Below, piece after piece: positions 416-28,408 of a stretch of 37,769 nt of DNA. The number at the start of each line of letters is the position of its first letter. The stretch's first letter is position 1. Source of the DNA: a virus (taxonomy: Duplodnaviria > Heunggongvirae > Uroviricota > Caudoviricetes). Made by a program: the position numbers and the translations under genes. The DNA lies in the IMG/VR virus record IMGVR_UViG_3300045988_180316; one strand, written 5' to 3'. The notes under the pieces were generated by a model. The model ran no database searches. It had not been told where the DNA came from and saw only the letters and a list, made by a program, of their open reading frames with translations.

Positions 416-1579
416 ATGACTGCAAAAGAAATTGATTTTTTGAGCTCGCGTGAAATAGTAGGTTTCACGCTGCCTGTGTTGCATACCAAGGGCGGTTACT
501 GGTATGTTGACTTTACTGCCTTTGACCCTGTCTCGGGTCGGATGAAGCGCAAGAAGTACATGCTTAATAGGTACAAGACAGACCACAAGAAGCGTATGAT
601 GGGTACCTTGCTTATCCACAATATCACGGCAAAATTGACCGCTGGCTGGAATCCTTGGGTGAATGCCGACAAGTCGAGACAATTCACTGAAATACCAATT
701 ATCTTTAGTCGTTATCGTGATTATATTAAGTCGATGACCGACAAAAAGTCGATGAAGGAAAAGACCTCTATCGACTACCTCAGCCGCCTCAAGACTCTGG
801 AGTCTTTTATCTCTGAGTGCAAGAGTGTCAAATATGCCTATCAGATTGACCGTGCCTTTGCCATCGACTTCTTAGACCACCTGATGTATGACCGTGATGT
901 GAGTGCTACCACAAGAAACAACTATCGCTCTTGGCTTGTGTCCTTCGGCACTTGGCTTATGGATAGAAAATATATCAGCGAGAACCCTGCCATCGACATC
1001 AGAAACATCGCTCAGAAGGAGAAGTTCAGAGACCCTTTGACCGAGGGCGCACTTAAGAAGCTGAAGACTTATCTCTATGATAACAACAGACATTTTCTCT
1101 TGGCTTGCCTCTTTGAATATTATACCTTTATCCGACCGAATGAGTTGACGCAGATAAGAATCAAAGATGTGTCGATTGCTGACCAGACGGTCTTTATCAG
1201 TTCTGCCATCAGCAAGAACCGTAAGGACGGACTTGTGGCATTGAACGATGAAATCTTGAAGCTCATGATAGAGCTGAAGATATTTGAGCATCCGGGACAT
1301 TGTTTTATCTTTGGCAAGGGTTTGAAGCCCGGAGAGGAAAGAGCACCTTATAATCAGCTGAGAGTGGAGTGGGGTAAGATGAGAGATGCGATTGGGTTTC
1401 CGAAGGAGTATCAGTTTTATAGCCTGAAGGACACTGGCATCAGGGATTTGGCGAACGCACAGGGTATCGTGGTCGCCAAGGATCAGGCACGCCACTCTGA
1501 TATATCTGTGACGAATCGATATATCAAGAACCAGATGAAAGTGAACGAGGAGACCAAGCACTTCAAAGGTGGGCTTTAG
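416..1579 (+). CDS. int: Tyrosine recombinase / phage integrase
   Basis: 387 aa. The C-terminal catalytic region reads ...YSLKDTGIRDLA...ARHSDISVTNRYI (box II His/Arg and nucleophile Tyr). The position next to a tRNA fits an integrase. Confidence 0.9.
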   Translation: MTAKEIDFLSSREIVGFTLPVLHTKGGYWYVDFTAFDPVSGRMKRKKYMLNRYKTDHKKRMMGTLLIHNITAKLTAGWNPWVNADKSRQFTEIPIIFSRYRDYIKSMTDKKSMKEKTSIDYLSRLKTLESFISECKSVKYAYQIDRAFAIDFLDHLMYDRDVSATTRNNYRSWLVSFGTWLMDRKYISENPAIDIRNIAQKEKFRDPLTEGALKKLKTYLYDNNRHFLLACLFEYYTFIRPNELTQIRIKDVSIADQTVFISSAISKNRKDGLVALNDEILKLMIELKIFEHPGHCFIFGKGLKPGEERAPYNQLRVEWGKMRDAIGFPKEYQFYSLKDTGIRDLANAQGIVVAKDQARHSDISVTNRYIKNQMKVNEETKHFKGGL

Positions 1580-8428: not shown

Positions 8429-8459
8429 TTTGCGGTATGGTGGAAAAATATTATATTTG
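8429..8459 (+). promoter_or_regulatory. Canonical Bacteroidota promoter on the PLUS strand
   Basis: TTTG at 8429-8432, a 19-nt spacer, then TATATTTG at 8452-8459. ATG 8485 lies about 19 nt after the predicted TSS. Confidence 0.6.
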
Positions 8460-9055: not shown

Positions 9056-9087
9056 CAAAGATAACGCTTTTATCTGAAAGCACCAAA
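9056..9087 (-). promoter_or_regulatory. Bacteroidota promoter (-7 TAtcTTTG, -33 TTTG) for the moron leader
   Basis: Plus CAAAGATA at 9056-9063 and CAAA at 9084-9087, with a 20-nt spacer. It is embedded in the imperfect palindrome GGTGC..AGATAA-CGCTT-TTATCT..GCACC. Confidence 0.5.
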
Positions 9088-10926: not shown

Positions 10927-12501
10927 TCACGTGAATTTATAGAACTTCTTTTTGAACTTATTGTGAAGCTCTGCGACCACGGTGGAGAAGGGTAGCTCGT
11001 CACGACAGAAGTCGTTGAGGGCTTGGTCTATCAAGATCTTGGAGCCTGTATAGAGGTAGTGCTCCTGAGGCTGCCATACCTCGGTGCCGTCTGGCTCCAG
11101 GTGGTCGATGATGCGATAGCGAAGGGAGAGGCGCTTCTTGGGTACCTCTTTGGTGACCATGTGGGTGGAGCCGTCCGGGGCGGTCTCCTCTTGCTGGATG
11201 GTCTCCTTCTCTATCACCGAGTCATCGACCTTGTAGTCTATCACTTGGACGAGGAACTTGTTCTCGTCCTGACCCTCACGGCAGATGATGTCCTCGATGG
11301 ACTGCTGCTGTGATTTCTCCATACCGTCAAAAGGCACGCGCGCACGGCGAGCCTTGACGAGTTTACCGAATCTTTCCATACCGATTTTCTTATATAAGTG
11401 TTTTGAGTTTGCGTGGATGCCCAGTCCTAGGCGAGAGGCTGCCTTGATCTGTATCTGACGGTCTGTGAAGCCCGCCTTGCGTAAGTTGGCAATCTGTTTG
11501 CAGAGGTCGTGCTTGAACCGCTTGCGCAGCAGGGCGTGGTCAGCGTAGATGATCTGACCGCAGAAGTCGATGCCATCGCAGGTGCGGTGGATACCCCAAG
11601 ACTTATTGATGGATAGGTGCCAGTCACGGGCGAGGTGCATCACGGCAAGCTCTGCCATCAGCCTGAGGAACACCTTATCCTCGTGGAGGATGTAGATGTT
11701 GTCCATGAAGCGGTAATAATGGCGAAGACCTTGGCGGCAGAAGCGCTCGAACCTATCGTTGAGCGACTTCACCCCCCCACATAGCAGCTGAGCTTGCTGC
11801 TGAGTGCGACAGGTAACGAGCATGTCGCTCACGTAGCGAGCCTGCCAGTAACGGAACTTGTCGGTGTCTTGGAGAATGTCGAAGCATCGGAGTGCCAGGT
11901 AATCGAAGCGGGCGAGGAAGAGCTGACCCAAGAGTTGGGCGAGCTTGACGCCGAGCACGATGCCTGGATTGAAGCTATCGACCACCTCGTCGATGAAGGC
12001 GAGGAGCTTGCGGTCTTTGATCTTGCGGCGATATTCACTTTTGAGAAGAGCGTGGTCTATGCTCTGAAAATAATGGTGAATATCCATGGGCAAGCAGTAG
12101 AAGGTATCTTGCTGTGGCGAGTTGAAGATGTCTCGCTTGACAAGATTATAGAAATAATGGGTGCCCTTGCCCTTGGAACCAGCCGGACTGTGGCTGTAGA
12201 GTGTCTTGCGAAGGTTATCCTCTACAGGTTGCAGGGCAGCGTGCTGGATGACGTGGTCGATAACGGGCAGCTTGTTGACTTGGCGATGTTTTGGATAGTC
12301 GATATCTTTGGCGACATAGGCTGAGGTATGCCAAGTTTGTTGGGTGTAAGCATCGAGCATGCGTCCGATGTTATGGTCTAGGTTTGCCTCGAATTTTTGG
12401 ACCGCACGGCGAGACATCTTTTGTCGGGCGTAGTCATAGAATGCCCGACGAAAGTTGTCTAGTGTCTCGACCTGTGGCGATATGTTGCCAAACCTTTTCA
12501 T
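10927..12501 (-). CDS. DGR-type reverse transcriptase (atypical)
   Basis: 524 aa from ATG 12501. RT motifs: KLPVIDHVIQHAAL, SPAGSKGKGTH, CLPMDIHHYFQSIDH (motif A Asp), GIVLGVKLAQLLGQLFL (DGR-like motif B), YYRFMDNIYIL (motif C), IDFCGQIIY..LLRKRF. It lies next to a TR/VR pair. Confidence 0.88.
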   Translation of the reverse strand: MKRFGNISPQVETLDNFRRAFYDYARQKMSRRAVQKFEANLDHNIGRMLDAYTQQTWHTSAYVAKDIDYPKHRQVNKLPVIDHVIQHAALQPVEDNLRKTLYSHSPAGSKGKGTHYFYNLVKRDIFNSPQQDTFYCLPMDIHHYFQSIDHALLKSEYRRKIKDRKLLAFIDEVVDSFNPGIVLGVKLAQLLGQLFLARFDYLALRCFDILQDTDKFRYWQARYVSDMLVTCRTQQQAQLLCGGVKSLNDRFERFCRQGLRHYYRFMDNIYILHEDKVFLRLMAELAVMHLARDWHLSINKSWGIHRTCDGIDFCGQIIYADHALLRKRFKHDLCKQIANLRKAGFTDRQIQIKAASRLGLGIHANSKHLYKKIGMERFGKLVKARRARVPFDGMEKSQQQSIEDIICREGQDENKFLVQVIDYKVDDSVIEKETIQQEETAPDGSTHMVTKEVPKKRLSLRYRIIDHLEPDGTEVWQPQEHYLYTGSKILIDQALNDFCRDELPFSTVVAELHNKFKKKFYKFT

Positions 12502-12710
12502 AAGCGGTGTAATGTCTGTGTTGAACGGTGTATAAACTGTGTATAGTCTGAATCGTCTGCTTTTGTACACTTGATAACCTTCGACCGGATGACCGTGTTG
12601 TCATCATCTACCAGCTGTCTTATTGATGTGTATGTATCGCCATGGGGCGAGGATTGACCCTGTAATCTCGAAGTGGGAGCAAACGACCCACGAAGAGATA
12701 TGTCTGTAAG

Positions 12711-13069: not shown

Positions 13070-14542
13070 TTAGGCCGCCTCGTAATACACGGGTTCCACT
13101 GACCACTCGGATGCTGCTTCGCAGAGGGCGGCGCCGCAGTACACATAGGCAAGCGAGACAGCATCGCTCACGTCGCGCGTCGAAAGACCGCATTGACCAC
13201 CAACGTAAGCGCTAGCACCACGAAGGCAGACACGAAAACCGGATGTAGCGCCGCTATTATTCCAGAAATAGCTAGTCCAATAGGTTGACTCGGATGCGCC
13301 CGTGGCGGTCGGGAAGTTCTCCAGATGCTCCATCGAGAGCGTCTTGATAAAGCCTTCGCCCTTGGTCGGCGAGGTGCTGTAAGCCACCATGCCATCGGCG
13401 GAACCTATCGTCCACGTGCCGTAGATGGACGGTGCCACGAGATGGGTCACGGAAGTGTCTTCGTTGCATCGCACCTGCTCGTCATCCATGTGTCGCCACA
13501 ACGAGCCGAAGCCATTTTTGTAGCCGAAGAAGGATGGTATCTTGGCGGTATAGACCACGGTGCCATCGTCTTTTTTGACCTCGTAGCTTGCCTCGCCACA
13601 AGCGTCGCCCAGCTCGATGCCGGCAGACATCGGCACGACAGGGCGATAGCCGTTGTAACCACCCCAATCAGGCATCTGTGTCACGCCAGCTCCGAGACCA
13701 CCCTGGTAGAGACCGTTGGCATCTTTTTGGCTGTTGACGGCATCCTGGTCGTAGTGGGTGCCGAAGATGACCCCGAAGAGCACGGCGATGGCAGAGGTGT
13801 GGCGCATGGTGGTGCAGAGCCAGCCTGTGCCGTTTTTGCGGGCAGCGGCACGCCAGTATTCGGTAGTCTGGTTGGTGGCAGCCTTGCCCAGCATGGTGCG
13901 GTTGGTGTTATCTAACGTTGAGTCGTTGTTGCCGCCTCGGTAGTCTGTGCCCTCGTTGATGTAACTCACCAGCTTGCCTGTGCTGCGCTCTAGCGTGGCG
14001 AAGCCAGCGGCGGAGATGCTGCCAACAGGTATCTTGTAGTTGTACTCGCCTGGTATCGGCGTAGGGCTGACCATCTCGTAATGGAGTCTGCCCACGGTCT
14101 TGATGACCATGTACCACTCCTTGCCCCAGCCCCACTGGTAGTGCCCCTCTGAGCCGTCGAGCTTGGCTGTCTCGCCGGTGGCATACTTGTAATGGTCTTT
14201 GGAGTCGAGCTTGCGACGGGAGTGGTCATTCTTGACTAGGTAGCAGCCCAGACCCAGCTCCGCTGGTAGGGTCTGCAGTAACTCCAGCGAGCCCACATAA
14301 GTGGCGGCCTTAGGGGTTGCATTGTCGAGGTTCCACACTCGACCACACCAAGGATGCTGTCCCATCTGGACGGCGCTTTTGAGCGACATCTGCTCAGACC
14401 TGCCAGACTTTTTGTCGAAGACCTCGACAATCTTGTCTGTGGCGCTCATGTCTGACTGTGGGAGGTCGTCAACCTGTTGACCTCCATCGAAAGCGGCTAT
14501 GATAGCCTTGAGCTTACTCTCTTCTTCTGATGTTAATGCCAT
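13070..14542 (-). CDS. DGR target: receptor-binding/tail-fibre-tip protein with a C-type-lectin-fold variable C-terminus
   Basis: 490 aa from ATG 14542 (MALTSEEESKL...); the track start at 14755 overlaps the upstream gene. The C-terminus reads ...GFRVCLRGASAYVGGQCGLSTRDVSDAVSLAYVYCGAAL. Confidence 0.85.
   Translation of the reverse strand: MALTSEEESKLKAIIAAFDGGQQVDDLPQSDMSATDKIVEVFDKKSGRSEQMSLKSAVQMGQHPWCGRVWNLDNATPKAATYVGSLELLQTLPAELGLGCYLVKNDHSRRKLDSKDHYKYATGETAKLDGSEGHYQWGWGKEWYMVIKTVGRLHYEMVSPTPIPGEYNYKIPVGSISAAGFATLERSTGKLVSYINEGTDYRGGNNDSTLDNTNRTMLGKAATNQTTEYWRAAARKNGTGWLCTTMRHTSAIAVLFGVIFGTHYDQDAVNSQKDANGLYQGGLGAGVTQMPDWGGYNGYRPVVPMSAGIELGDACGEASYEVKKDDGTVVYTAKIPSFFGYKNGFGSLWRHMDDEQVRCNEDTSVTHLVAPSIYGTWTIGSADGMVAYSTSPTKGEGFIKTLSMEHLENFPTATGASESTYWTSYFWNNSGATSGFRVCLRGASAYVGGQCGLSTRDVSDAVSLAYVYCGAALCEAASEWSVEPVYYEAA
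13122..13242 (-). repeat. DGR variable repeat (VR)
   Basis: It lies inside the 3' end of the target gene. It shows 15 mismatches to the TR, and 14 of them fall at TR adenines on the coding strand. Confidence 0.9.
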
Positions 14543-14564
14543 AATAAAAAATGTATTTAATCGA

Positions 14565-15329
14565 TTAAACAATGCGTAATTTATCACCAACTTTTCTAAG
14601 CTTGCTCGATGCCGACAGGCGAAGGCGAGGCTGGCGTACGGTGATGCTGACCTCTTGCCAGAGCGGTGTGTTGGCGGTGGGGATGACCCAGAACTTGGTG
14701 ATGCCCTCGCCCTTGATGGTGAGGTTGCCGCTTGGGTCTGCCACGAGCGAGTCACCCTCGGCTCGCTGGAAGAGCACGCTCTGTGGGAGGTAGCTCGGCA
14801 GGATCTGCACGGCGATGCGCTGAGCCACCTTGTTGCGCAGGCTTATCTCGGGGAGATAGGCCAGGTTCATGCGAGCTGGCGCGATGAAGCCTGTGGCTAT
14901 CTGAGCGGCGAGACCATCCATCTGCGCTATCTTGGCATCGGCTCGCTTGGATGCCGCGTCTGCCTCTGCAGCCTTGGTCTCTGCCAAGGCTGCCTGTGAT
15001 GCTGCCGCCTCGCCCTGCTCGCCAGCCGCCTTGGCTGCGCTCTGGGCGAGGTTAGCCGCCTTGTTGGCATCGTCGGCCGCACCCTGCGCTCTGACGGTCG
15101 GTGTCTTGTCGAGCCACAAGCGCCACTTGGCGTTGGTATCTGAAGGAGTCGTCGTGTTGCCATCCTCTAGGGAGGCGAAGACTCCTGACGATGTGTGAAC
15201 GATGTCGCCCTCGTCGTAGCCCTTGACGGTCTGGCCATCCTCATCTTGATAGGAGTAGCCCGACTGCCAGGTGCCCTGGTCGGTGAAGGCGACATTGCCC
15301 ACGACAATGATGTTTGTGTTATCTGCCAT
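14565..15329 (-). CDS. Tail fibre component with an Ala-rich coiled coil and a C-terminal Ig-like (Big_2-like) domain
   Basis: 254 aa with an AAxxA-rich helical middle. The C-terminus ...VQILPSYLPQSVLF...NLTIKGEGITKFWVIP...VSITV resembles bacterial Ig-like folds. Confidence 0.5.
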   Translation of the reverse strand: MADNTNIIVVGNVAFTDQGTWQSGYSYQDEDGQTVKGYDEGDIVHTSSGVFASLEDGNTTTPSDTNAKWRLWLDKTPTVRAQGAADDANKAANLAQSAAKAAGEQGEAAASQAALAETKAAEADAASKRADAKIAQMDGLAAQIATGFIAPARMNLAYLPEISLRNKVAQRIAVQILPSYLPQSVLFQRAEGDSLVADPSGNLTIKGEGITKFWVIPTANTPLWQEVSITVRQPRLRLSASSKLRKVGDKLRIV

Positions 15330-22097: not shown

Positions 22098-22899
22098 AAG
22101 CTATATTGTGGCTAGCCTTGTAGGCGGTGGAATCTCTATATTTGGCGAAGTCATCGATGTTATCGTCTATGAGGGAGAGTAGGCTGAAGAAGAGTTTGTC
22201 TCTCGCCCTGAGGTCGATGGAATCGCCGTTTTTTGTGATATGGCACCCGATGAAATCGTAGATGCGCATGATGGCGACCCGATGGGAGGTGGTCGGGAAC
22301 TGAGCCTTGCGCTCCTCTTCGAGCAACTGGTCTATCTGTGCATCGGAGAGCTCTCGGCGCAGGAAGGTCTCGGCTTGGTCTATCTCGCCCTTGTGCGCCA
22401 CGAGGTCATCGAAGGTAAGCTTGCCGGGGATGCCGCAGAACTTGTTGAGGATGTATGGCGACCAAATGAAGGAGCGGATGGTGTTGAAGGCTTGCAAGCT
22501 GTCAGCCCAGCCCTCGACCTGTCGCAATCGGTTGATGACGTTGTGCAGGGCGTAGTCTCGCCTGTAGGCAAGCTCGTGCTCCATGGCATCGACACGAGCC
22601 TGTGAGGCTGGGGCGATGTTGTCGTTGGAGACCACCCCGAAGCCGTTGTCGGTCATGATGATGTCGTGGGAGTGGAGACTATCGAGGAAGGTGGCCAGTA
22701 TGACATAGTCTCTGGCGTAGCGCTGCAGGGGCGAGTCTTCGGTCGAGACCGCTTGCTCGGCATCTGCGCCCACGACGGTGGCGATAAGATCGTCAAAATG
22801 GTTCTCGAAGGATGGCTGCATCTTGGTGAAGACATCCTCGGAGGCTGCCGCCACGAATGGCAGCAGCTGCTCGAACTGGTTTATATCAATCTGTATCAT
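22054..22899 (-). CDS. Hypothetical phage protein downstream of the portal
   Basis: ATG at 22899 (MIQIDINQFEQLL...) is preferred. ATG 22941 is also possible but would overlap the portal by 56 nt. Confidence 0.6.
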   Translation of the reverse strand: MIQIDINQFEQLLPFVAAASEDVFTKMQPSFENHFDDLIATVVGADAEQAVSTEDSPLQRYARDYVILATFLDSLHSHDIIMTDNGFGVVSNDNIAPASQARVDAMEHELAYRRDYALHNVINRLRQVEGWADSLQAFNTIRSFIWSPYILNKFCGIPGKLTFDDLVAHKGEIDQAETFLRRELSDAQIDQLLEEERKAQFPTTSHRVAIMRIYDFIGCHITKNGDSIDLRARDKLFFSLLSLIDDNIDDFAKYRDSTAYKASHNIAYENNADDTTFFFAG

Positions 22900-24292
22900 C
22901 TTGTTGCTTTGATTTTGGGTTGTTGGAAACTTGCTTGGCATCCTTGTTCTCGTCGAGGGTGGTGAGCATGATGAGCGGCACGTCTGGATAGACCTTCTGC
23001 TCCCAGTGGTTGAAGTAGATGACCACCCAGTGAACGGTCTCCATGAGGTCGTGGAACGCCTTCTCTATCGACTGCTTGAGGGTGAAGAGCTCTCGCTTGT
23101 CTGAGCCAGAGTTGTTGGTTTGGCTCTTGCCCGGTGTGGCGCCCACGAGATTAGGGTGGATGTTGTCGGCATAACACTGCATGTTGTTGCTCTCGGCGAT
23201 GTCGTCGCTGTAGTCACCGCCATCCTTTGAGGTGTCGATGCGCGTGATGCGCACCATCTTTACCTCTTTGCCATCAGGTGTGGTGTAATAGCCCGCTATC
23301 CAGAGCTTGCCGCTATTCTCGATGCCTGAGATGAAGGAGCGGATTTTTTCTTTCTCCTTCAGCTTGCGCTCCTTTTGCTTTGCCTTGTCGGTGATGTGCT
23401 CCTCTTGGAAGATGCCACGCCAATAGTCGTTGTGTATCTCTACGAGGTATGGGATGGCGGCGTGGTTTTTGAGCTTCGCCATCTTGCCGATGGCGATGAG
23501 CCGGGAGATGTCGTACCACTTGTCTCGGAAGATGGCGCTGTAGTAGGGCACGGGGTAGTATTGGCTGCCAGGAGTAGGGAAGCGGGTCACGATGGCGAAG
23601 ACACGGTCATTGCACTTCGCGCCACCCGTCTGTCTGGTCAGGGTCTGTCCGCTTTGTCCGTCGAGCCCCATGCGCTGCTGCAGGTCGCCCAGTGGGTCTA
23701 GCTCGTCGAGGAGCGGCAGCACCTCGATGTTGTCGGGATTGACGGCATTGCGCCAGTTGGCATAGAGCACGTATTCGGAGCGACCGTTTTTGCTCTGGGT
23801 GAACCGACAGTAGCACGCCTCTTTGTGCCGTATGCCCACGATGCGATCGCCCTTTTTGTTGAGGATGATGGCTGAGACACAAAAGAAGAAGTACTTCATG
23901 TCTGTGATTTGCTCTAGGAAGAAGCGCGAGAGGTTGTTGTGCATCTTGAAGAGGTTGACCTCTTTGTCTTGTGTCGGAAGCTTTGTCTTGATGTCGTTGT
24001 ACTGGAAGCCCATGCCGTAGCAGGTGAGCACGTTGAAGAGCTTGTTTTGCGCCATCACGCTGCTCTCACCGATATTTTTGATGAGCTGGTAGGGCAGCTT
24101 GTTGTCTGCCCCGAAGGGGATGTAGGTGTATCGCTGCTTTCCCACCTCTACGGAGACGGTGGGTGTGGTACCATCATCATCGAAGATGGATGAGGACTCG
24201 ACGAAGCCGCTGGTGGGCGAGGAGGTCTGGTAATCGAGCACCTCGCCCATGGTTGCGTATGTGATGTTTATGTTATCGCTTTTGTCTGTCAT
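22886..24292 (-). CDS. Portal protein candidate
   Basis: 468 aa from ATG 24292 (MTDKSDNINITY...). The size and an acidic C-terminal tail fit a portal. No diagnostic motif was verified. Confidence 0.5.
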   Translation of the reverse strand: MTDKSDNINITYATMGEVLDYQTSSPTSGFVESSSIFDDDGTTPTVSVEVGKQRYTYIPFGADNKLPYQLIKNIGESSVMAQNKLFNVLTCYGMGFQYNDIKTKLPTQDKEVNLFKMHNNLSRFFLEQITDMKYFFFCVSAIILNKKGDRIVGIRHKEACYCRFTQSKNGRSEYVLYANWRNAVNPDNIEVLPLLDELDPLGDLQQRMGLDGQSGQTLTRQTGGAKCNDRVFAIVTRFPTPGSQYYPVPYYSAIFRDKWYDISRLIAIGKMAKLKNHAAIPYLVEIHNDYWRGIFQEEHITDKAKQKERKLKEKEKIRSFISGIENSGKLWIAGYYTTPDGKEVKMVRITRIDTSKDGGDYSDDIAESNNMQCYADNIHPNLVGATPGKSQTNNSGSDKRELFTLKQSIEKAFHDLMETVHWVVIYFNHWEQKVYPDVPLIMLTTLDENKDAKQVSNNPKSKQQDDTD

Positions 24293-26134: not shown

Positions 26135-26400
26135 GCCTCACCTCCTTTCGCCTCCAGGGCAATGTTGATGGTCTTGAAGAGCTTGCTCATGTGGTCGAAG
26201 TTATTGAGCATGAGCAGCACCCTGTCGGCACCGCCGAGGTCTTCGACGCAGTTGGTCACCACCTCGTCGGAGATGAGTACCTTTTTGACTTGCTCAAGGT
26301 ACTCGATGAAGTAGTTGAGCTGGTTGACATCCATCATATCTACGAGCGCATTCCAGACCTCTGCTGTCATGTGTATGTTTGTTGCGTTGTTTGTGTTCAT
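26131..26400 (-). CDS. Hypothetical phage protein
   Basis: 89-aa ORF with an ATGA overlap. Confidence 0.6.
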   Translation of the reverse strand: MNTNNATNIHMTAEVWNALVDMMDVNQLNYFIEYLEQVKKVLISDEVVTNCVEDLGGADRVLLMLNNFDHMSKLFKTINIALEAKGGEA

Positions 26401-26660
26401 GCTGCAATTCCTCCCATCAGATAACCACCAGCAATCATCACTACCGCGAAGCAGGCTATGCCCACCATGGTCAATGCCACCTCGCCATAAGTAACCGTCT
26501 CTTCGCAGAGGTAGCTGAAGGTCTCGCTCCTGGTAGCCATGAGGCGCTTAGCCTCACGCTTGATTGCACACTTGAGGGATTTCATTCCCTCGTTCACATT
26601 CACGTGGATGCCGGCAGGCTTAGCCTGCATCGCATCATTTAATAAAATAGAATTCTGCAT
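26397..26660 (-). CDS. Small protein with a C-terminal TM helix
   Basis: 87 aa ending ...VALTMVGIACFAVVMIAGGYLMGGIAA. ATG 26660 lies 4 nt after repeat element E3. Confidence 0.55.
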   Translation of the reverse strand: MQNSILLNDAMQAKPAGIHVNVNEGMKSLKCAIKREAKRLMATRSETFSYLCEETVTYGEVALTMVGIACFAVVMIAGGYLMGGIAA

Positions 26661-26664
26661 ATTG

Positions 26665-26680
26665 CATCATCTGTTAAGCA
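26665..26680 (-). repeat. Element E3 (RNA: UGCUUAACAGAUGAUG), abuts the start codon
   Basis: Perfect 16-nt reverse complement of 26732-26747. Confidence 0.8.
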
Positions 26681-26712
26681 TTAGCAGCCAACTTGATTTC
26701 GTGAGAAAAGGG

Positions 26713-26795
26713 TGGCGGCTGCATTCCCCGTTGCTTAACAGATGATGACTTATCCGAGAGGACTAATCAAAAATCTACGGTTCATGCAGCCGCCA
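26713..26795 (-). repeat. 12-bp perfect inverted repeat enclosing E2
   Basis: TGGCGGCTGCAT (26713-26724) pairs with ATGCAGCCGCCA (26784-26795). Confidence 0.8.
26732..26747 (-). repeat. Element E2 (RNA: CAUCAUCUGUUAAGCA)
   Basis: Complementary to both E3 (16 nt) and E1 (14 nt). Confidence 0.8.
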
Positions 26796-26844
26796 TATTG
26801 GTACACCTTTTTCCCGTTGCCGGGAAAATGATACTCTTGGGCAT

Positions 26845-26875
26845 AAAAAAAGCCTGCGGCTGAGAAGCCATAGGC
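26845..26875 (-). terminator. Intrinsic terminator inside the leader
   Basis: Minus strand reads GCCUAUGGCU-UCUC-AGCCGCAGGC (9 of 10 pairs) followed by U7. It lies about 45-70 nt after the predicted TSS. Confidence 0.6.
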
Positions 26876-26904
26876 GAAACGGTCGCCCTGCCGGATAGAT
26901 TACT

Positions 26905-26918
26905 ATCATCTGTTAAGC
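26905..26918 (-). repeat. Element E1 (RNA: GCUUAACAGAUGAU), at the predicted 5' end of the transcript
   Basis: 14-nt direct repeat of 26666-26679. Confidence 0.8.
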
Positions 26919-26923
26919 GTTGG

Positions 26924-26955
26924 CAAAGGTAAGAAGAAAATCCGGAACCGCCAAA
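26924..26955 (-). promoter_or_regulatory. Full Bacteroidota promoter (-33 TTTG, 20-nt spacer, -7 TAccTTTG)
   Basis: Plus CAAAGGTA at 26924-26931 and CAAA at 26952-26955. The -33 box is formed by the end of the upstream terminator's U-run. Confidence 0.6.
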
Positions 26956-26984
26956 AAAAAAGCGAGAAATTTTCATTCCTCGCT
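26952..26984 (-). terminator. Rho-independent terminator of the secreted-protein gene
   Basis: Minus strand reads AGCGAG-(12 nt)-CUCGCU followed by U9. Confidence 0.7.
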
Positions 26985-27017
26985 CAATTTTATTTTCAAA
27001 ACATGTTTAATAACATA

Positions 27018-27416
27018 TTATTGCTCATCTTTGGTAATTAACCCTGCTCGAATCTCATCATCGTTCTTCACTCTCTTCACCAGAACATAGTGGAGAACAG
27101 CCCTGCCGGCACCCTCTGTTATATAATATGTCTTGTCAAGTTTCCAACCTTTCTTAGCCATATAATTCACGGCTGCCATGACGGTATTGAACTTGATCTG
27201 TTTGCCATCCTCACCATATAAGCTCTCGAAAGAACCTCCACCATTGGAGACTGCACCCATATCAAGCATGACCTTCACTTTGCCGACGCCCCAAAAGTTA
27301 TATGCCTTGAGGTCGCAATAAACCGGATACTTACCATCCTCAGACTGGATGGTGCTCTGCGCTCTAGCGCCAATAGCCATAAAAATGATGGCCATCATAA
27401 CTAAAAACCTTTTCAT
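27018..27416 (-). CDS. Small secreted protein (signal peptide), moron
   Basis: 132 aa. MKRFLVMMAIIFMAIGARA-QS is an SPase I-type signal with no lipobox Cys. The gene has its own -7 box and terminator. Confidence 0.7.
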   Translation of the reverse strand: MKRFLVMMAIIFMAIGARAQSTIQSEDGKYPVYCDLKAYNFWGVGKVKVMLDMGAVSNGGGSFESLYGEDGKQIKFNTVMAAVNYMAKKGWKLDKTYYITEGAGRAVLHYVLVKRVKNDDEIRAGLITKDEQ

Positions 27417-27647: not shown

Positions 27648-28073
27648 TTAAACATACTGTAGAACTGGTCTATCTATCAAGAGTCCAGTATCTATATCTC
27701 CTTTAACTTTTGCTATACCTTGTCTAATTTTCTCCAAGCTTTTGCCTTGTGGTACCTTGATGCCTGCTGCATATTGTCGAAGCAACGAGGCGTTCATGCC
27801 GATATACTTGGCGAAGGCTGAGATACTTAGAGGATAGTAGTTGAAAAATGCCCCAACATCGAAGACGAAGTGAAACTCCAAGTCTGGGTACTCCTTACCT
27901 TCCTCCTCATAGAATTCTCTCATTTCCTTATCTGCAATGAGGAAATCTTCCATAGCAGCCTTTGCGGTCTTGCCGTCACCAATAAGGCCAAACGTCAAGT
28001 CATCAGTCCCAGTCATGAAGCAAGAATATAAATCCTTGCCAGACTCCACTACAACAGTAACTTTTCTTGCCAT
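27648..28073 (-). CDS. hicB: HicB-family antitoxin (N-terminal HicB fold plus C-terminal HTH)
   Basis: 141 aa: MARKVTVVVESGKDLYSCFMTG...TAKAAMEDF... with a C-terminal HTH-like ISAFAKYIGMNASLLRQYAAG. It lies downstream of hicA. Confidence 0.75.
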   Translation of the reverse strand: MARKVTVVVESGKDLYSCFMTGTDDLTFGLIGDGKTAKAAMEDFLIADKEMREFYEEEGKEYPDLEFHFVFDVGAFFNYYPLSISAFAKYIGMNASLLRQYAAGIKVPQGKSLEKIRQGIAKVKGDIDTGLLIDRPVLQYV

Positions 28074-28149
28074 ATCTTTCTATATATAAAGTTCATAATC
28101 AAAAGTGTCCTTCTTGCATACCAAGAAAATCATGGAAGAAGAACCTGGG

Positions 28150-28332
28150 CTAAAGCCCAAGTTCTTGATAGATAGATTTCAGAGTGCGAATATTCACCTC
28201 TTCAGTTCCATGCCGAGGAACGGCAGTGCTCTTCCCATTGGCTGGGTTGAACCAAATGTCGTGTCGGCCTCCATGACGAAGTAGAAAGCATCCCGCTTTC
28301 TTTAACTTCCGATACAGTTCACTGTATTTCAT
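28150..28332 (-). CDS. hicA: HicA-family mRNA interferase toxin
   Basis: 60 aa from ATG 28332: MKYSELYRKLKKAGCFLLRHGGRHDIWFNPANGKSTAVPRHGTEEVNIRTLKSIYQELGL, the typical HicA pattern. The track start at 28407 lies upstream of the promoter. Confidence 0.85.
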   Translation of the reverse strand: MKYSELYRKLKKAGCFLLRHGGRHDIWFNPANGKSTAVPRHGTEEVNIRTLKSIYQELGL

Positions 28333-28376
28333 AATCTCAGTATGTTTAAAGAACACTTTGTCCTTATTGGACGATG

Positions 28377-28408
28377 CAAAGGTAACAATAAAGTTATAAA
28401 TAACCAAA
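28377..28408 (-). promoter_or_regulatory. Full Bacteroidota promoter for hicAB
   Basis: Plus CAAAGGTA at 28377-28384 and CAAA at 28405-28408, with a 20-nt spacer. Confidence 0.6.

Follow-up and report, generated by a model that had tools for sequence, protein, structure and literature searches.

A three-copy complementary element in the 5' leader of a gut prophage portal operon: a candidate multi-state RNA switch with matched types

In the immI region of phages P1 and P7, arranged as a1 b1 - c4 - a2 b2 - icd - ant, the c4 antisense RNA is encoded within the transcript of its own target, and this target overlaps the ribosome-binding site (RBS) of the first gene. Heteroimmunity there results from matched changes in antisense and target, and RNase P produces the mature RNA from a helix that bears a CCA-like tail. 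Likewise, in the plasmid systems CopA/CopT of R1 and RNA I/RNA II of ColE1, a short exposed loop sets the partner, and matched changes lead to mutually blind groups. Phage lambda places its constitutive late promoter PR' before a short terminated leader RNA (PR' - 6S RNA - tR'), and the late operon needs passage through the terminator. Phage P4 transcribes seqA - cI/seqB - seqC from the promoter PLE and is controlled by RNA-RNA pairing (PMC4825925), while in the Gifsy-1 module isrK - STnc1160 - orf45 - anrP the short RNA IsrK opens its own read-through mRNA in trans (PMC4825925). Here we report on a leader at positions 26661-26955 of a 37,769-nucleotide stretch of Caudoviricetes DNA (IMG/VR record IMGVR_UViG_3300045988_180316; this whole 37.8-kb stretch is called the window), which carries three copies of one short element, E1, E2 and E3, with E2 complementary to the other two. 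We read it, with a probability of about 0.55, as a multi-state RNA switch in the 5' leader of a portal/structural operon, in which E1 opens the pairing between E2 and E3.

By its organization the leader looks like a Bacteroidota counterpart of the antisense-RNA modules of P4, P1 and Gifsy-1, although, judged by its sequence, it is not a member of the C4, CI or IsrK families. Like P4, it has one promoter, a target, a complement carried in a stable RNA and a second target before the first open reading frames (ORFs) (PMC4825925), and in both systems the specificity resides in the complementary sequences. Indeed, 184 leaders showed the functional order target - antisense - target on one predicted transcript, the more distant target lying at the first start codon. 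The leader differs from P4 in that there is no detectable homology in sequence or structure and no Rfam family, the host belongs to the Bacteroidota and not to the Proteobacteria, a structural (portal) operon rather than replication would be controlled, and E1 is separated from E2 by a conserved intrinsic terminator. Gifsy-1 isrK shares with the leader a promoter-proximal short RNA, an intrinsic terminator and a read-through mRNA with its first RBS closed, as well as a complementary stable RNA between the short RNA and the RBS (PMC4825925). Unlike IsrK, which controls a regulator leading to an antiterminator, the leader would control virion genes; a trans action of E1 RNA is suggested by analogy, and the two share no homology. 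We know of no description of comparable type diversity for IsrK.

The other systems are further removed. c4 uses two short loop-target pairs, whereas the leader has one 14-16-nt element, and c4 controls an antirepressor; membership in the c4 family was not recovered through Rfam. The lambda late leader shares with our leader a short terminated RNA before structural genes, but lambda employs Q, a DNA- and RNA polymerase-binding protein, with neither RNA-RNA pairing nor translation control at the first start codon, and no Q-like gene was identified in the prophage. The plasmid antisense RNAs come from the opposite strand of their target, whereas the leader elements all lie on one transcript. As in the trp and pyrBI attenuators, mutually exclusive leader helices would decide the fate of the downstream genes. 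In contrast to these, the leader lacks a conserved leader peptide (the ATG of the sole candidate ORF is lost in relatives), the predicted step is translation initiation, and the terminator stands upstream of the competing helices instead of within them.

We then investigated the elements themselves, all features of the leader lying on the minus strand and being given in window coordinates. The exact 14-mer GCTTAACAGATGAT occurs in three copies in the window, with no others. E1 (GCUUAACAGAUGAU, 26905-26918) is complementary to E2, which is the 16-mer CAUCAUCUGUUAAGCA at 26732-26747 (the 14-mer is read on the plus strand at 26733-26746) and is the complement of both E1 and E3. E3, the 16-mer UGCUUAACAGAUGAUG at 26665-26680 (14-mer, 26666-26679), spans -22 to -7 from the A of the start codon and ends 4 nt before the ATG at 26660. 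A preliminary description of this DNA, made from the letters alone, had placed the three elements in these positions and had proposed that E2 can pair perfectly with either E1 (14 bp) or E3 (16 bp), and both points held. E2 and E3 are separated by a spacer of 51 bp, and the inverted repeats E1 and E2 flank a segment of 158 bp. The leader had also been called highly structured; as a result of folding, the whole 291-nt leader gave a z-score of -4.07, with 0 of 200 shuffles folding as well, and its helices keep their pairing in relatives. The 0.27-kb stretch was, in addition, described as free of ORFs. This is correct in the relevant sense; mechanically called ORFs of 44 and 64 amino acids overlap the leader, and the ATG of the 44-amino-acid ORF, which lies inside E1, is absent in relatives of the AGACGAT and AGAAGAT types.

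Relatives were collected by using the 87-amino-acid product of the first gene and a conserved 20-mer of the region around E2 (the E2 module) as queries; in an approximate search with up to 3 mismatches, this 20-mer was present as a single copy per window. Viral and genome collections contributed 167 loci and metagenomes a further 120, and these yielded 184 distinct leaders of 251-315 nt, belonging to Segatella/Prevotella prophages and human-gut contigs. Helix statistics were mostly taken on alignment A3, which comprises 109 leaders, all collinear, the leader alignment being rich in gaps. The leader backbone is highly conserved, and the most variable sites form a fixed subset in E1, E2 and E3 with a mirror-image pattern. 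As many as 42 distinct E types were detected, such as GCUUAACAGAUGAU, GGUUACAAGAUGAU, GCUAAUAAGAAGAU and GUCUACAAGAUGAU, and the three copies nearly always match within one genome. Both helices are perfectly Watson-Crick paired in 123 of the 184 leaders, while 11 contain wobble pairs only and are free of mismatches; in 27, which all come from a single clade, an A·C mismatch is fixed in E1:E2. The remaining 23 have a mismatch or a shortened helix in E1:E2, E2:E3 or both; among them the E1 type is often unlike that of E2 and E3, which agree with each other, and this suggests recombinant leaders.

Covariation was evident for both alternative helices. In A3, E1:E2 was paired in 97.2% of cells, with changes on both sides in 8 of its 14 pairs. 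The cells changed on both sides numbered 222, as compared with 58 in shuffles, none of 500 shuffles reached 222, and controls in which the partner was slid by 1-3 columns were only 16-75% paired. E2:E3, counted together with the hairpin H2 and the anti-P1 segment described below, reached 96.8% pairing, and both partners had changed in 11 pairs. The expectation that the repeats would be conserved and co-vary in relatives was thus borne out for E1:E2 as well as E2:E3 in the 184 leaders.

Next, the surroundings of E2 were analyzed. The E2 module (26713-26795) is closed by a perfect 12-bp helix, P1 (arms 26784-26795 and 26713-26724), which had already been noticed to enclose E2 and is followed by CCC. 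When folded in isolation, the module reaches -39.7 kcal/mol (z = -5.19). Over the 109 sequences, P1 was paired in 99.8% of cells. U·G and G·U pairs were each seen in 19 sequences, and a C-G pair had become U-A in 16; one clade combines this exchange with the U·G and G·U pairs. Since these wobble pairs would turn into A·C mismatches if read on the other strand, they argue for an RNA structure on the transcribed strand. Within the P1 loop, the 5' strand of a further helix, P1b (CCGU), is joined to a fourth, partial E-like copy, E0 (AGAU; 26773-26780 for both). Read as CCGU(A)AGAN, E0 pairs with the conserved half of E2 to form helix P1c, and so masks that half. The base after AGA in E0 and the variable base in the AUC-N-UCU of E2 were found as U-A in 77 leaders, U·G in 18, A-U in 8, G·U in 3 and A·G in 1, so that P1c is paired in 106 of 107 leaders, though E0 is a copy of neither E1 nor E3. 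The module further contains the small hairpin P2 (26747-26768), which is 100% paired and shows U-A to C-G in 17 sequences.

The variable 3' half of E2, on the other hand, sits in a 7-8-nt internal loop of the isolated module. The mean unpaired probability over 100 different leaders was 0.87 for the variable half versus 0.31 for the conserved half; antisense RNAs usually present their recognition seed as an exposed loop. Furthermore, the 11-12-bp P1 bears a tail (26710-26724) that reads A-CCC here, A-CCA in the clade of L034 and A-CC(C/A) in all relatives. P1 with this tail is suggestive of a tRNA acceptor/T-arm minihelix, the shape that is recognized by RNase P in the processing of the c4 and CI precursors.

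Just upstream of E3, the anti-P1 segment (GGCUGC, 26684-26689) can pair alternatively with the 3' arm of P1 (GCAGCC). One of its pairs is G·U in 61 and G-C in 29 sequences, and two others changed from A-U to G-C in 18 and from G-C to A-U in 16. Without P1, E2 and the P1 3' arm can pair with anti-P1 and E3, to yield one long hairpin that buries the region upstream of the start codon. The calculated full-leader states, E1:E2 (-92.0 kcal/mol), E2:E3 (-90.8) and P1 (-90.2), lie within 2 kcal/mol.

Taken over the leader, the hairpin H1, the helices P1, P1b, P1c, P2 and anti-P1, and likewise the stem of the terminator T1 showed changes that were compensatory or led to G·U, and this held for the transcribed strand only. 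For the E helices, single transitions were wobble-compatible in 7 cases as against 1 A·C (hand tally; one-sided binomial p = 0.035), a test that is only suggestive because these helices are nearly always perfect. E2 of the leaders L219 and L282 has one A replaced by G and still pairs with both partners. We concluded from these comparisons that the leader is a structured RNA whose elements work by base pairing, the decisive RNA-level evidence being P1, P1c and anti-P1.

The upstream part of the leader contains the signals for a short RNA. A full promoter had been predicted here, and this promoter (26924-26955) is indeed a perfect match to the Bacteroidota type, rather than to TTGACA/TATAAT, with TTTG at 26955-26952 (-33), 20 nt, and TAccTTTG at 26931-26924 (-7). 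The pattern TTTG-N19-21-TAnnTTTG occurs 6 times in the window, as compared with 0.28 expected by chance, and the leader promoter is conserved in 75 of the 76 loci of a first set and 160 of the 166 leaders of a larger one. A scan for sigma-70 promoters missed it because the organism uses the Bacteroidota motif. E1 begins 6 nt past the -7 box; given the usual distance from the -7 box to the start in Bacteroidota, E1 would be placed at or within a few nucleotides of the RNA 5' end, which we infer to lie at or just before E1.

Two hairpins and a terminator follow. H1 (GAUAG-UAAU-CUAUC, 26894-26907), which overlaps the last 3 nt of E1, was paired in 98.9% of cells, with changes on both sides in 4 of 5 pairs. 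H2 (GGGCGA-loop-UCGCCU, 26872-26888) was 99.1% paired, with C-G to U·G in 6 sequences, and the GCCU of its 3' arm is also part of the 5' arm of T1; H2 is a possible antiterminator, which would determine how much short RNA is made relative to read-through RNA. In the intrinsic terminator T1, GCCUAUGGC-loop-GCCGCAGGC followed by U7 (26845-26875), the 9-bp stem is interrupted by a single internal mismatch. All 184 unique leaders have six or more U in a row after the stem, so the U7 terminator noted earlier is present and conserved; 90% of the stem cells are paired, and U·G has replaced U-A in 18 sequences. At the sequence level T1 shows a G+C-rich stem, an immediate U run and a kept position, as in intrinsic terminators. 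The predicted RNA ending at T1 has a median length of 76 nt and carries E1.

Between T1 and the E2 module lies the 8-bp hairpin UUUUCCCG-GCAA-CGGGAAAA (26809-26828), capped by a GNRA loop as previously described. It is modular, since relatives carry 1-3 tandem UUUUCC-UAACU-GGGAAAA units instead (alignment A3, columns 100-165); a hairpin at this site is kept, whereas the GNRA loop and the copy number vary. It could serve as a protein binding site or as an RNA stabilizer.

From the observed or computed features, namely the elements, their conservation and covariation, the RNA-level structure, the diversity of types and the identity of the operon, we infer the transcript ends, the state that would be ON, a possible action in trans and a signal that would flip the switch. 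A constitutive, consensus housekeeping-type promoter would start the RNA at or just before E1, and most transcripts would probably stop at T1 to yield the RNA of ~76 nt with E1 at its 5' end. On the read-through RNA, E2 would be held in the stable scaffold of P1, P1b and P1c, with its conserved half masked and its variable half displayed, and E3 would cover the ribosome landing site upstream of the start codon. In the OFF state, the 16 bp of E2:E3, extended by pairing of the P1 3' arm with anti-P1, would block translation of the first gene, and probably expression of the operon too. In the ON state, E1 would seed on the exposed variable loop of E2, zip up over 14 bp and free E3. E1 could be supplied in cis by the same RNA, and possibly in trans by the short terminated RNA, as with IsrK. 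The variable halves would make the recognition private to each phage type. The 1:2 / 2:3 logic proposed for these elements in the preliminary description fits the data, and E0, the alternative pairing of anti-P1 and the 42 swapped types were recognized in addition to it.

The types themselves diverge rapidly and are exchanged. Among leaders with backbones no more than 3% divergent, the E positions differ by 8.4% and the leader backbone by 1.7%, a 5-fold excess, while the adjacent gene differs by 10.0%. The clearest pair is L014 and L015, which are 99.93% identical over 3 kb downstream and 99.76% over 2.5 kb upstream, and yet differ at 32 of 300 positions in the leader and carry different E types (Fisher p = 7e-35). 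Leaders of near-identical phages differ 50-100 times more than their flanks. On this sequence evidence, whole leader modules are swapped between near-identical phages by recombination, and since different E types occur in near-identical phages, no protein encoded within 3 kb tracks the type. Moreover, the metagenome contig L181 (760-5060) contains a tandem copy of a cassette comprising the upstream region, the leader and the small genes, with its junction in the first codons of a 352-amino-acid gene, and its two leaders are of different E type, GTCTACAAGATGAT and GCTTATAAGAAGAT; the duplication may be genuine, or it may come from two strains joined during assembly. The 42 swapped types point to recognition by type, which may act in trans in the manner of P4, P1 and IsrK. 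Such type-specific recognition would account for the 42 types, the 5-fold E divergence, the module swapping and the two-type cassettes of L181, whereas a purely cis-acting leader under neutral compensatory drift explains these four points less well.

A more distant relative, L168 (2320-2700), whose portal protein is 57% identical, has a similar promoter within a 9-bp inverted repeat and a T1-like terminator, together with other long complementary elements, a 21-bp helix and a third partial copy (fold z = -6.9). This suggests that the leader position is an old regulatory site with turnover of its parts. Another, L169, seems unrelated in the leader region.

Several observations weigh against the reading in which E1 opens E2:E3. 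The start site, the termination at T1 and any processing are all predictions, and since every read-through RNA brings its own E1 in cis, the switch might be ON by default. E2:E3 together with P1 would form a pseudoknot, which is not scored by folding tools. The covariation is largely inherited, the independent events being far fewer than the cells, so that the counts are inflated by ancestry, and recombination of modules explains part of the type pattern without selection. G·U pairs are rare in the E helices, which taken alone cannot exclude selection for DNA identity. Finally, L047 (2670-3000) and L192 lack the promoter, E1 and the T1 stem and retain E2 and E3. In both, the missing part is replaced by the 3' end of another gene and its terminator, joined exactly at the U run before AUGCCCAAG; E1 may thus be dispensable, or these elements may be defective.

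The direction of control could also be the reverse, with the RNA of E2 acting as a trans repressor like P4 CI. As in P4 CI or P1 c4 immunity, the E2 module would be excised and persist as a stable small RNA in lysogens, pairing in trans with E3 to block translation and with E1 to cause termination or decay. It would act on its own and on incoming same-type phages, and escape by new E types would drive the diversity. We hold this explanation to be unlikely. In its favor, the target - antisense - target order behind one promoter is that of seqA-CI-seqC in P4 (PMC4825925). The consensus promoter would likely be active in lysogens, and the 42 types, the exchange of whole modules among near-identical phages and the unlike leaders of L181 are all in keeping with immunity. 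The scaffold around E2 is, moreover, very stable and leaves the variable half exposed, and P1 with A-CC(C/A) is like an acceptor minihelix, which recalls the RNase P processing of c4 and CI. It is difficult to reconcile with immunity, however, that the operon is structural (portal) rather than one for replication or an antirepressor, as its block would not save the host cell, or that E1 on each read-through RNA, along with the terminated RNAs, should titrate E2; in addition, neither an own promoter nor processing sites were demonstrable for the E2 module, and the U run after P1 is not conserved. The data do not choose between opening by E1 and repression by E2, and both predict type-specific recognition. 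A tentative idea, possible rather than probable, is an RNA-only and type-specific addressing system, in which the E2 module, as a minihelix-like scaffold possibly matured by RNase P, would use its 7-8-nt variable loop to recognize E1/E3 of its own type. It would silence or license the translation of virion genes of the phage itself and of same-type superinfecting phages, frequency-dependent escape giving at least 42 mutually blind types among Segatella phages of the human gut.

The remaining explanations fare worse. It is improbable, in our judgment, that the leader is a purely cis-acting structure for mRNA stability, processing or a fixed translational set-point, its types being due to neutral compensatory drift and recombination. 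Intramolecular pairing does explain every helix, recombination does exchange whole modules, and the E divergence is near that of the adjacent gene (8.4% and 10.0%). Triple coordinated change should nevertheless be slower than change at neutral sites, and yet the E positions exceed the leader backbone (8.4% versus 1.7%) and leaders of near-identical phages greatly exceed their flanks; an exposed E2 half and a terminator that frees an E1-only RNA would, besides, be needless in a static structure. DNA sites for a co-evolving protein, either operators of a repressor or activator or terminase cosB/pac repeats, are very improbable. The three asymmetric copies of 14-16 bp, two direct and one inverted, one of them lying over the start site and the other two shortly before the first gene, do have the look of such sites, they are nearly always identical rather than wobble-paired, and lambda cosB has three R sites. 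Sites for a co-evolving neighbor protein were rejected for ~3 kb around, as phages with 99.8-99.9% identical flanks (2.5 kb upstream, 3 kb downstream) carry different types; 42 types would also demand 42 protein specificities. Besides, E0 follows E2 by pairing rules including wobble and not by identity, single-base departures go 7 to 1 towards G·U on this strand, and the surrounding helices are of RNA type. A terminase cosB/pac site was rejected in turn, as the E type does not co-vary with a nearby protein and the contig ends around the leader fall at scattered, not fixed, positions. Four viral contigs (L024, L027, L032 and L054) stop within the leader region, at different positions 94-385 nt upstream of the 87-amino-acid gene, probably because strains differ in the elements and hairpin modules and the assembly broke there, and not at defined genome ends. 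Least credible, to a degree that we would practically dismiss, is an inverton that flips the E1-E2 segment with its terminator, or the E2-E3 segment. Invertons are frequent in this phylum and common in Bacteroidales, the cwpV switch of C. difficile works by a terminator in a flipped leader, and perfect inverted repeats do surround the 158-bp terminator-bearing segment downstream of the promoter. None of 230 contexts with enough upstream sequence was inverted, however, T1 was forward in all 223 where it was found, the 109 aligned leaders are collinear, and the E2-E3 spacer is merely 51 bp. No recombinase or invertase gene was found beside the leader among the flanking-gene matches, the sole integrase lying 25 kb off at 416-1579.

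Other candidates were also considered. Ribosome-mediated attenuation through a leader peptide was unsupported, as the ATG in E1 of the 44-amino-acid ORF is lost in the AGACGAT and AGAAGAT relatives. For a riboswitch, no Rfam aptamer was matched, and the invariant stretches of the leader are mostly in helices; an unknown ligand or protein partner is conceivable. The element had not been recognized in the preliminary description as a known riboswitch or RNA family, and this agrees with an Rfam cmscan of the whole window at gathering scores, which returned only the tRNA and RT-17, and with a search of 26500-27100 at E values up to 10, which returned chance-level matches to unrelated families and none to C4, IsrK or SeqA. 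We also found no described RNA of this kind in the literature on phages of Bacteroides, Segatella or other Bacteroidales, and a search of annotated phage records for relatives gave one match only, which is unannotated.

Segatella (Prevotella) copri is among the most abundant human gut bacteria, and to our knowledge its phages are almost unstudied. Against this background, a leader found in hundreds of gut contigs that matched no described RNA family, with an unusually clean triple, in fact quadruple, covariation, offers a handle on how related gut prophages avoid or exploit one another. If the proposed switch is true, tandem-encoded RNA control in the style of P4, P1 and IsrK would have arisen independently in Bacteroidota, and on virion rather than early genes. 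If the addressing system is true, it would be the first RNA-based heteroimmunity described outside Proteobacteria and the first that acts on a structural operon. The ~42 matched types would form a natural library of orthogonal RNA-RNA regulators, ready for use in Bacteroidales, in which initiation is not driven by Shine-Dalgarno sequences and genetic tools are few.

We then examined the genes around the leader. Judged by its sequence, the window is a prophage of a Segatella/Prevotella gut host type, and its relatives reside in Segatella copri and Prevotella genomes. It carries a tRNA-Met and an integrase at one end, tape measure and tail protein genes, a reverse transcriptase with an RT-17 RNA, a head protease and a weak match to a terminase. 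The preceding gene (27018-27416, minus) ends in its own intrinsic terminator (26953-26985, minus), an 11-bp stem followed by a T run, which closes the preceding transcription unit. Downstream of the leader, the first gene of the operon (26397-26660, minus; ATG at 26660-26658) encodes 87 amino acids with a hydrophobic C-terminal segment and gave no family match in PHROGs or Pfam. Searches of ten flanking genes against PHROGs and Pfam likewise gave hardly any annotation, and the genes directly downstream of the leader had no family match. Since these searches gave almost nothing, the portal gene was identified by structure prediction and Foldseek. This gene (22886-24292, minus), 2.2 kb downstream of the leader in the same orientation, encodes 468 amino acids from an internal ATG. 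The model of its product was built from 22 homologues, with a mean predicted local distance difference test (pLDDT) score of 61, and the best 50 PDB matches of the Foldseek search were all phage portals, with a top E value of 6e-7. On the basis of this model, the gene is assigned to a portal protein, and the leader therefore heads an operon of three small genes, the portal gene and structural genes, consistent with the small-gene/portal operon that had been proposed.

Some minor observations were also made. The last three bases of E3 are AUG, and they open a 10-codon ORF (MQYAEFYFIK, 26628-26667, minus) in another frame, which overlaps the start of the 87-amino-acid gene; some L034-clade leaders have the corresponding AUG in frame with that gene. 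Three more full matches to the Bacteroidota promoter, at 8429-8459 (+), 9056-9087 (-) and 1283-1313 (+), could mark other units that are expressed in lysogeny. Upstream of the leader, between it and the terminase-like gene, is an island of accessory genes (HicA, a likely HicB partner and a secreted protein) that differs among relatives. The HicA toxin gene within 27648-28408 (-) matches Pfam PF07927 (E 1e-12) and has a full consensus promoter (28377-28408), and is followed by a gene for 141 amino acids that is probably HicB. The tRNA-Met with its own consensus promoter (161-299, +) adjoins the tyrosine integrase gene (416-1579, +), and this is probably the attachment end of the prophage. Finally, a diversity-generating retroelement was found at 10927-12654 (-) and 13070-14755 (-). 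Its reverse transcriptase matches PHROG 1423 (E 1e-54), the 5' end being overlapped by the RT-17 RNA (59.4 bits, 12553-12654), and the adjoining tail protein gene is its likely target.

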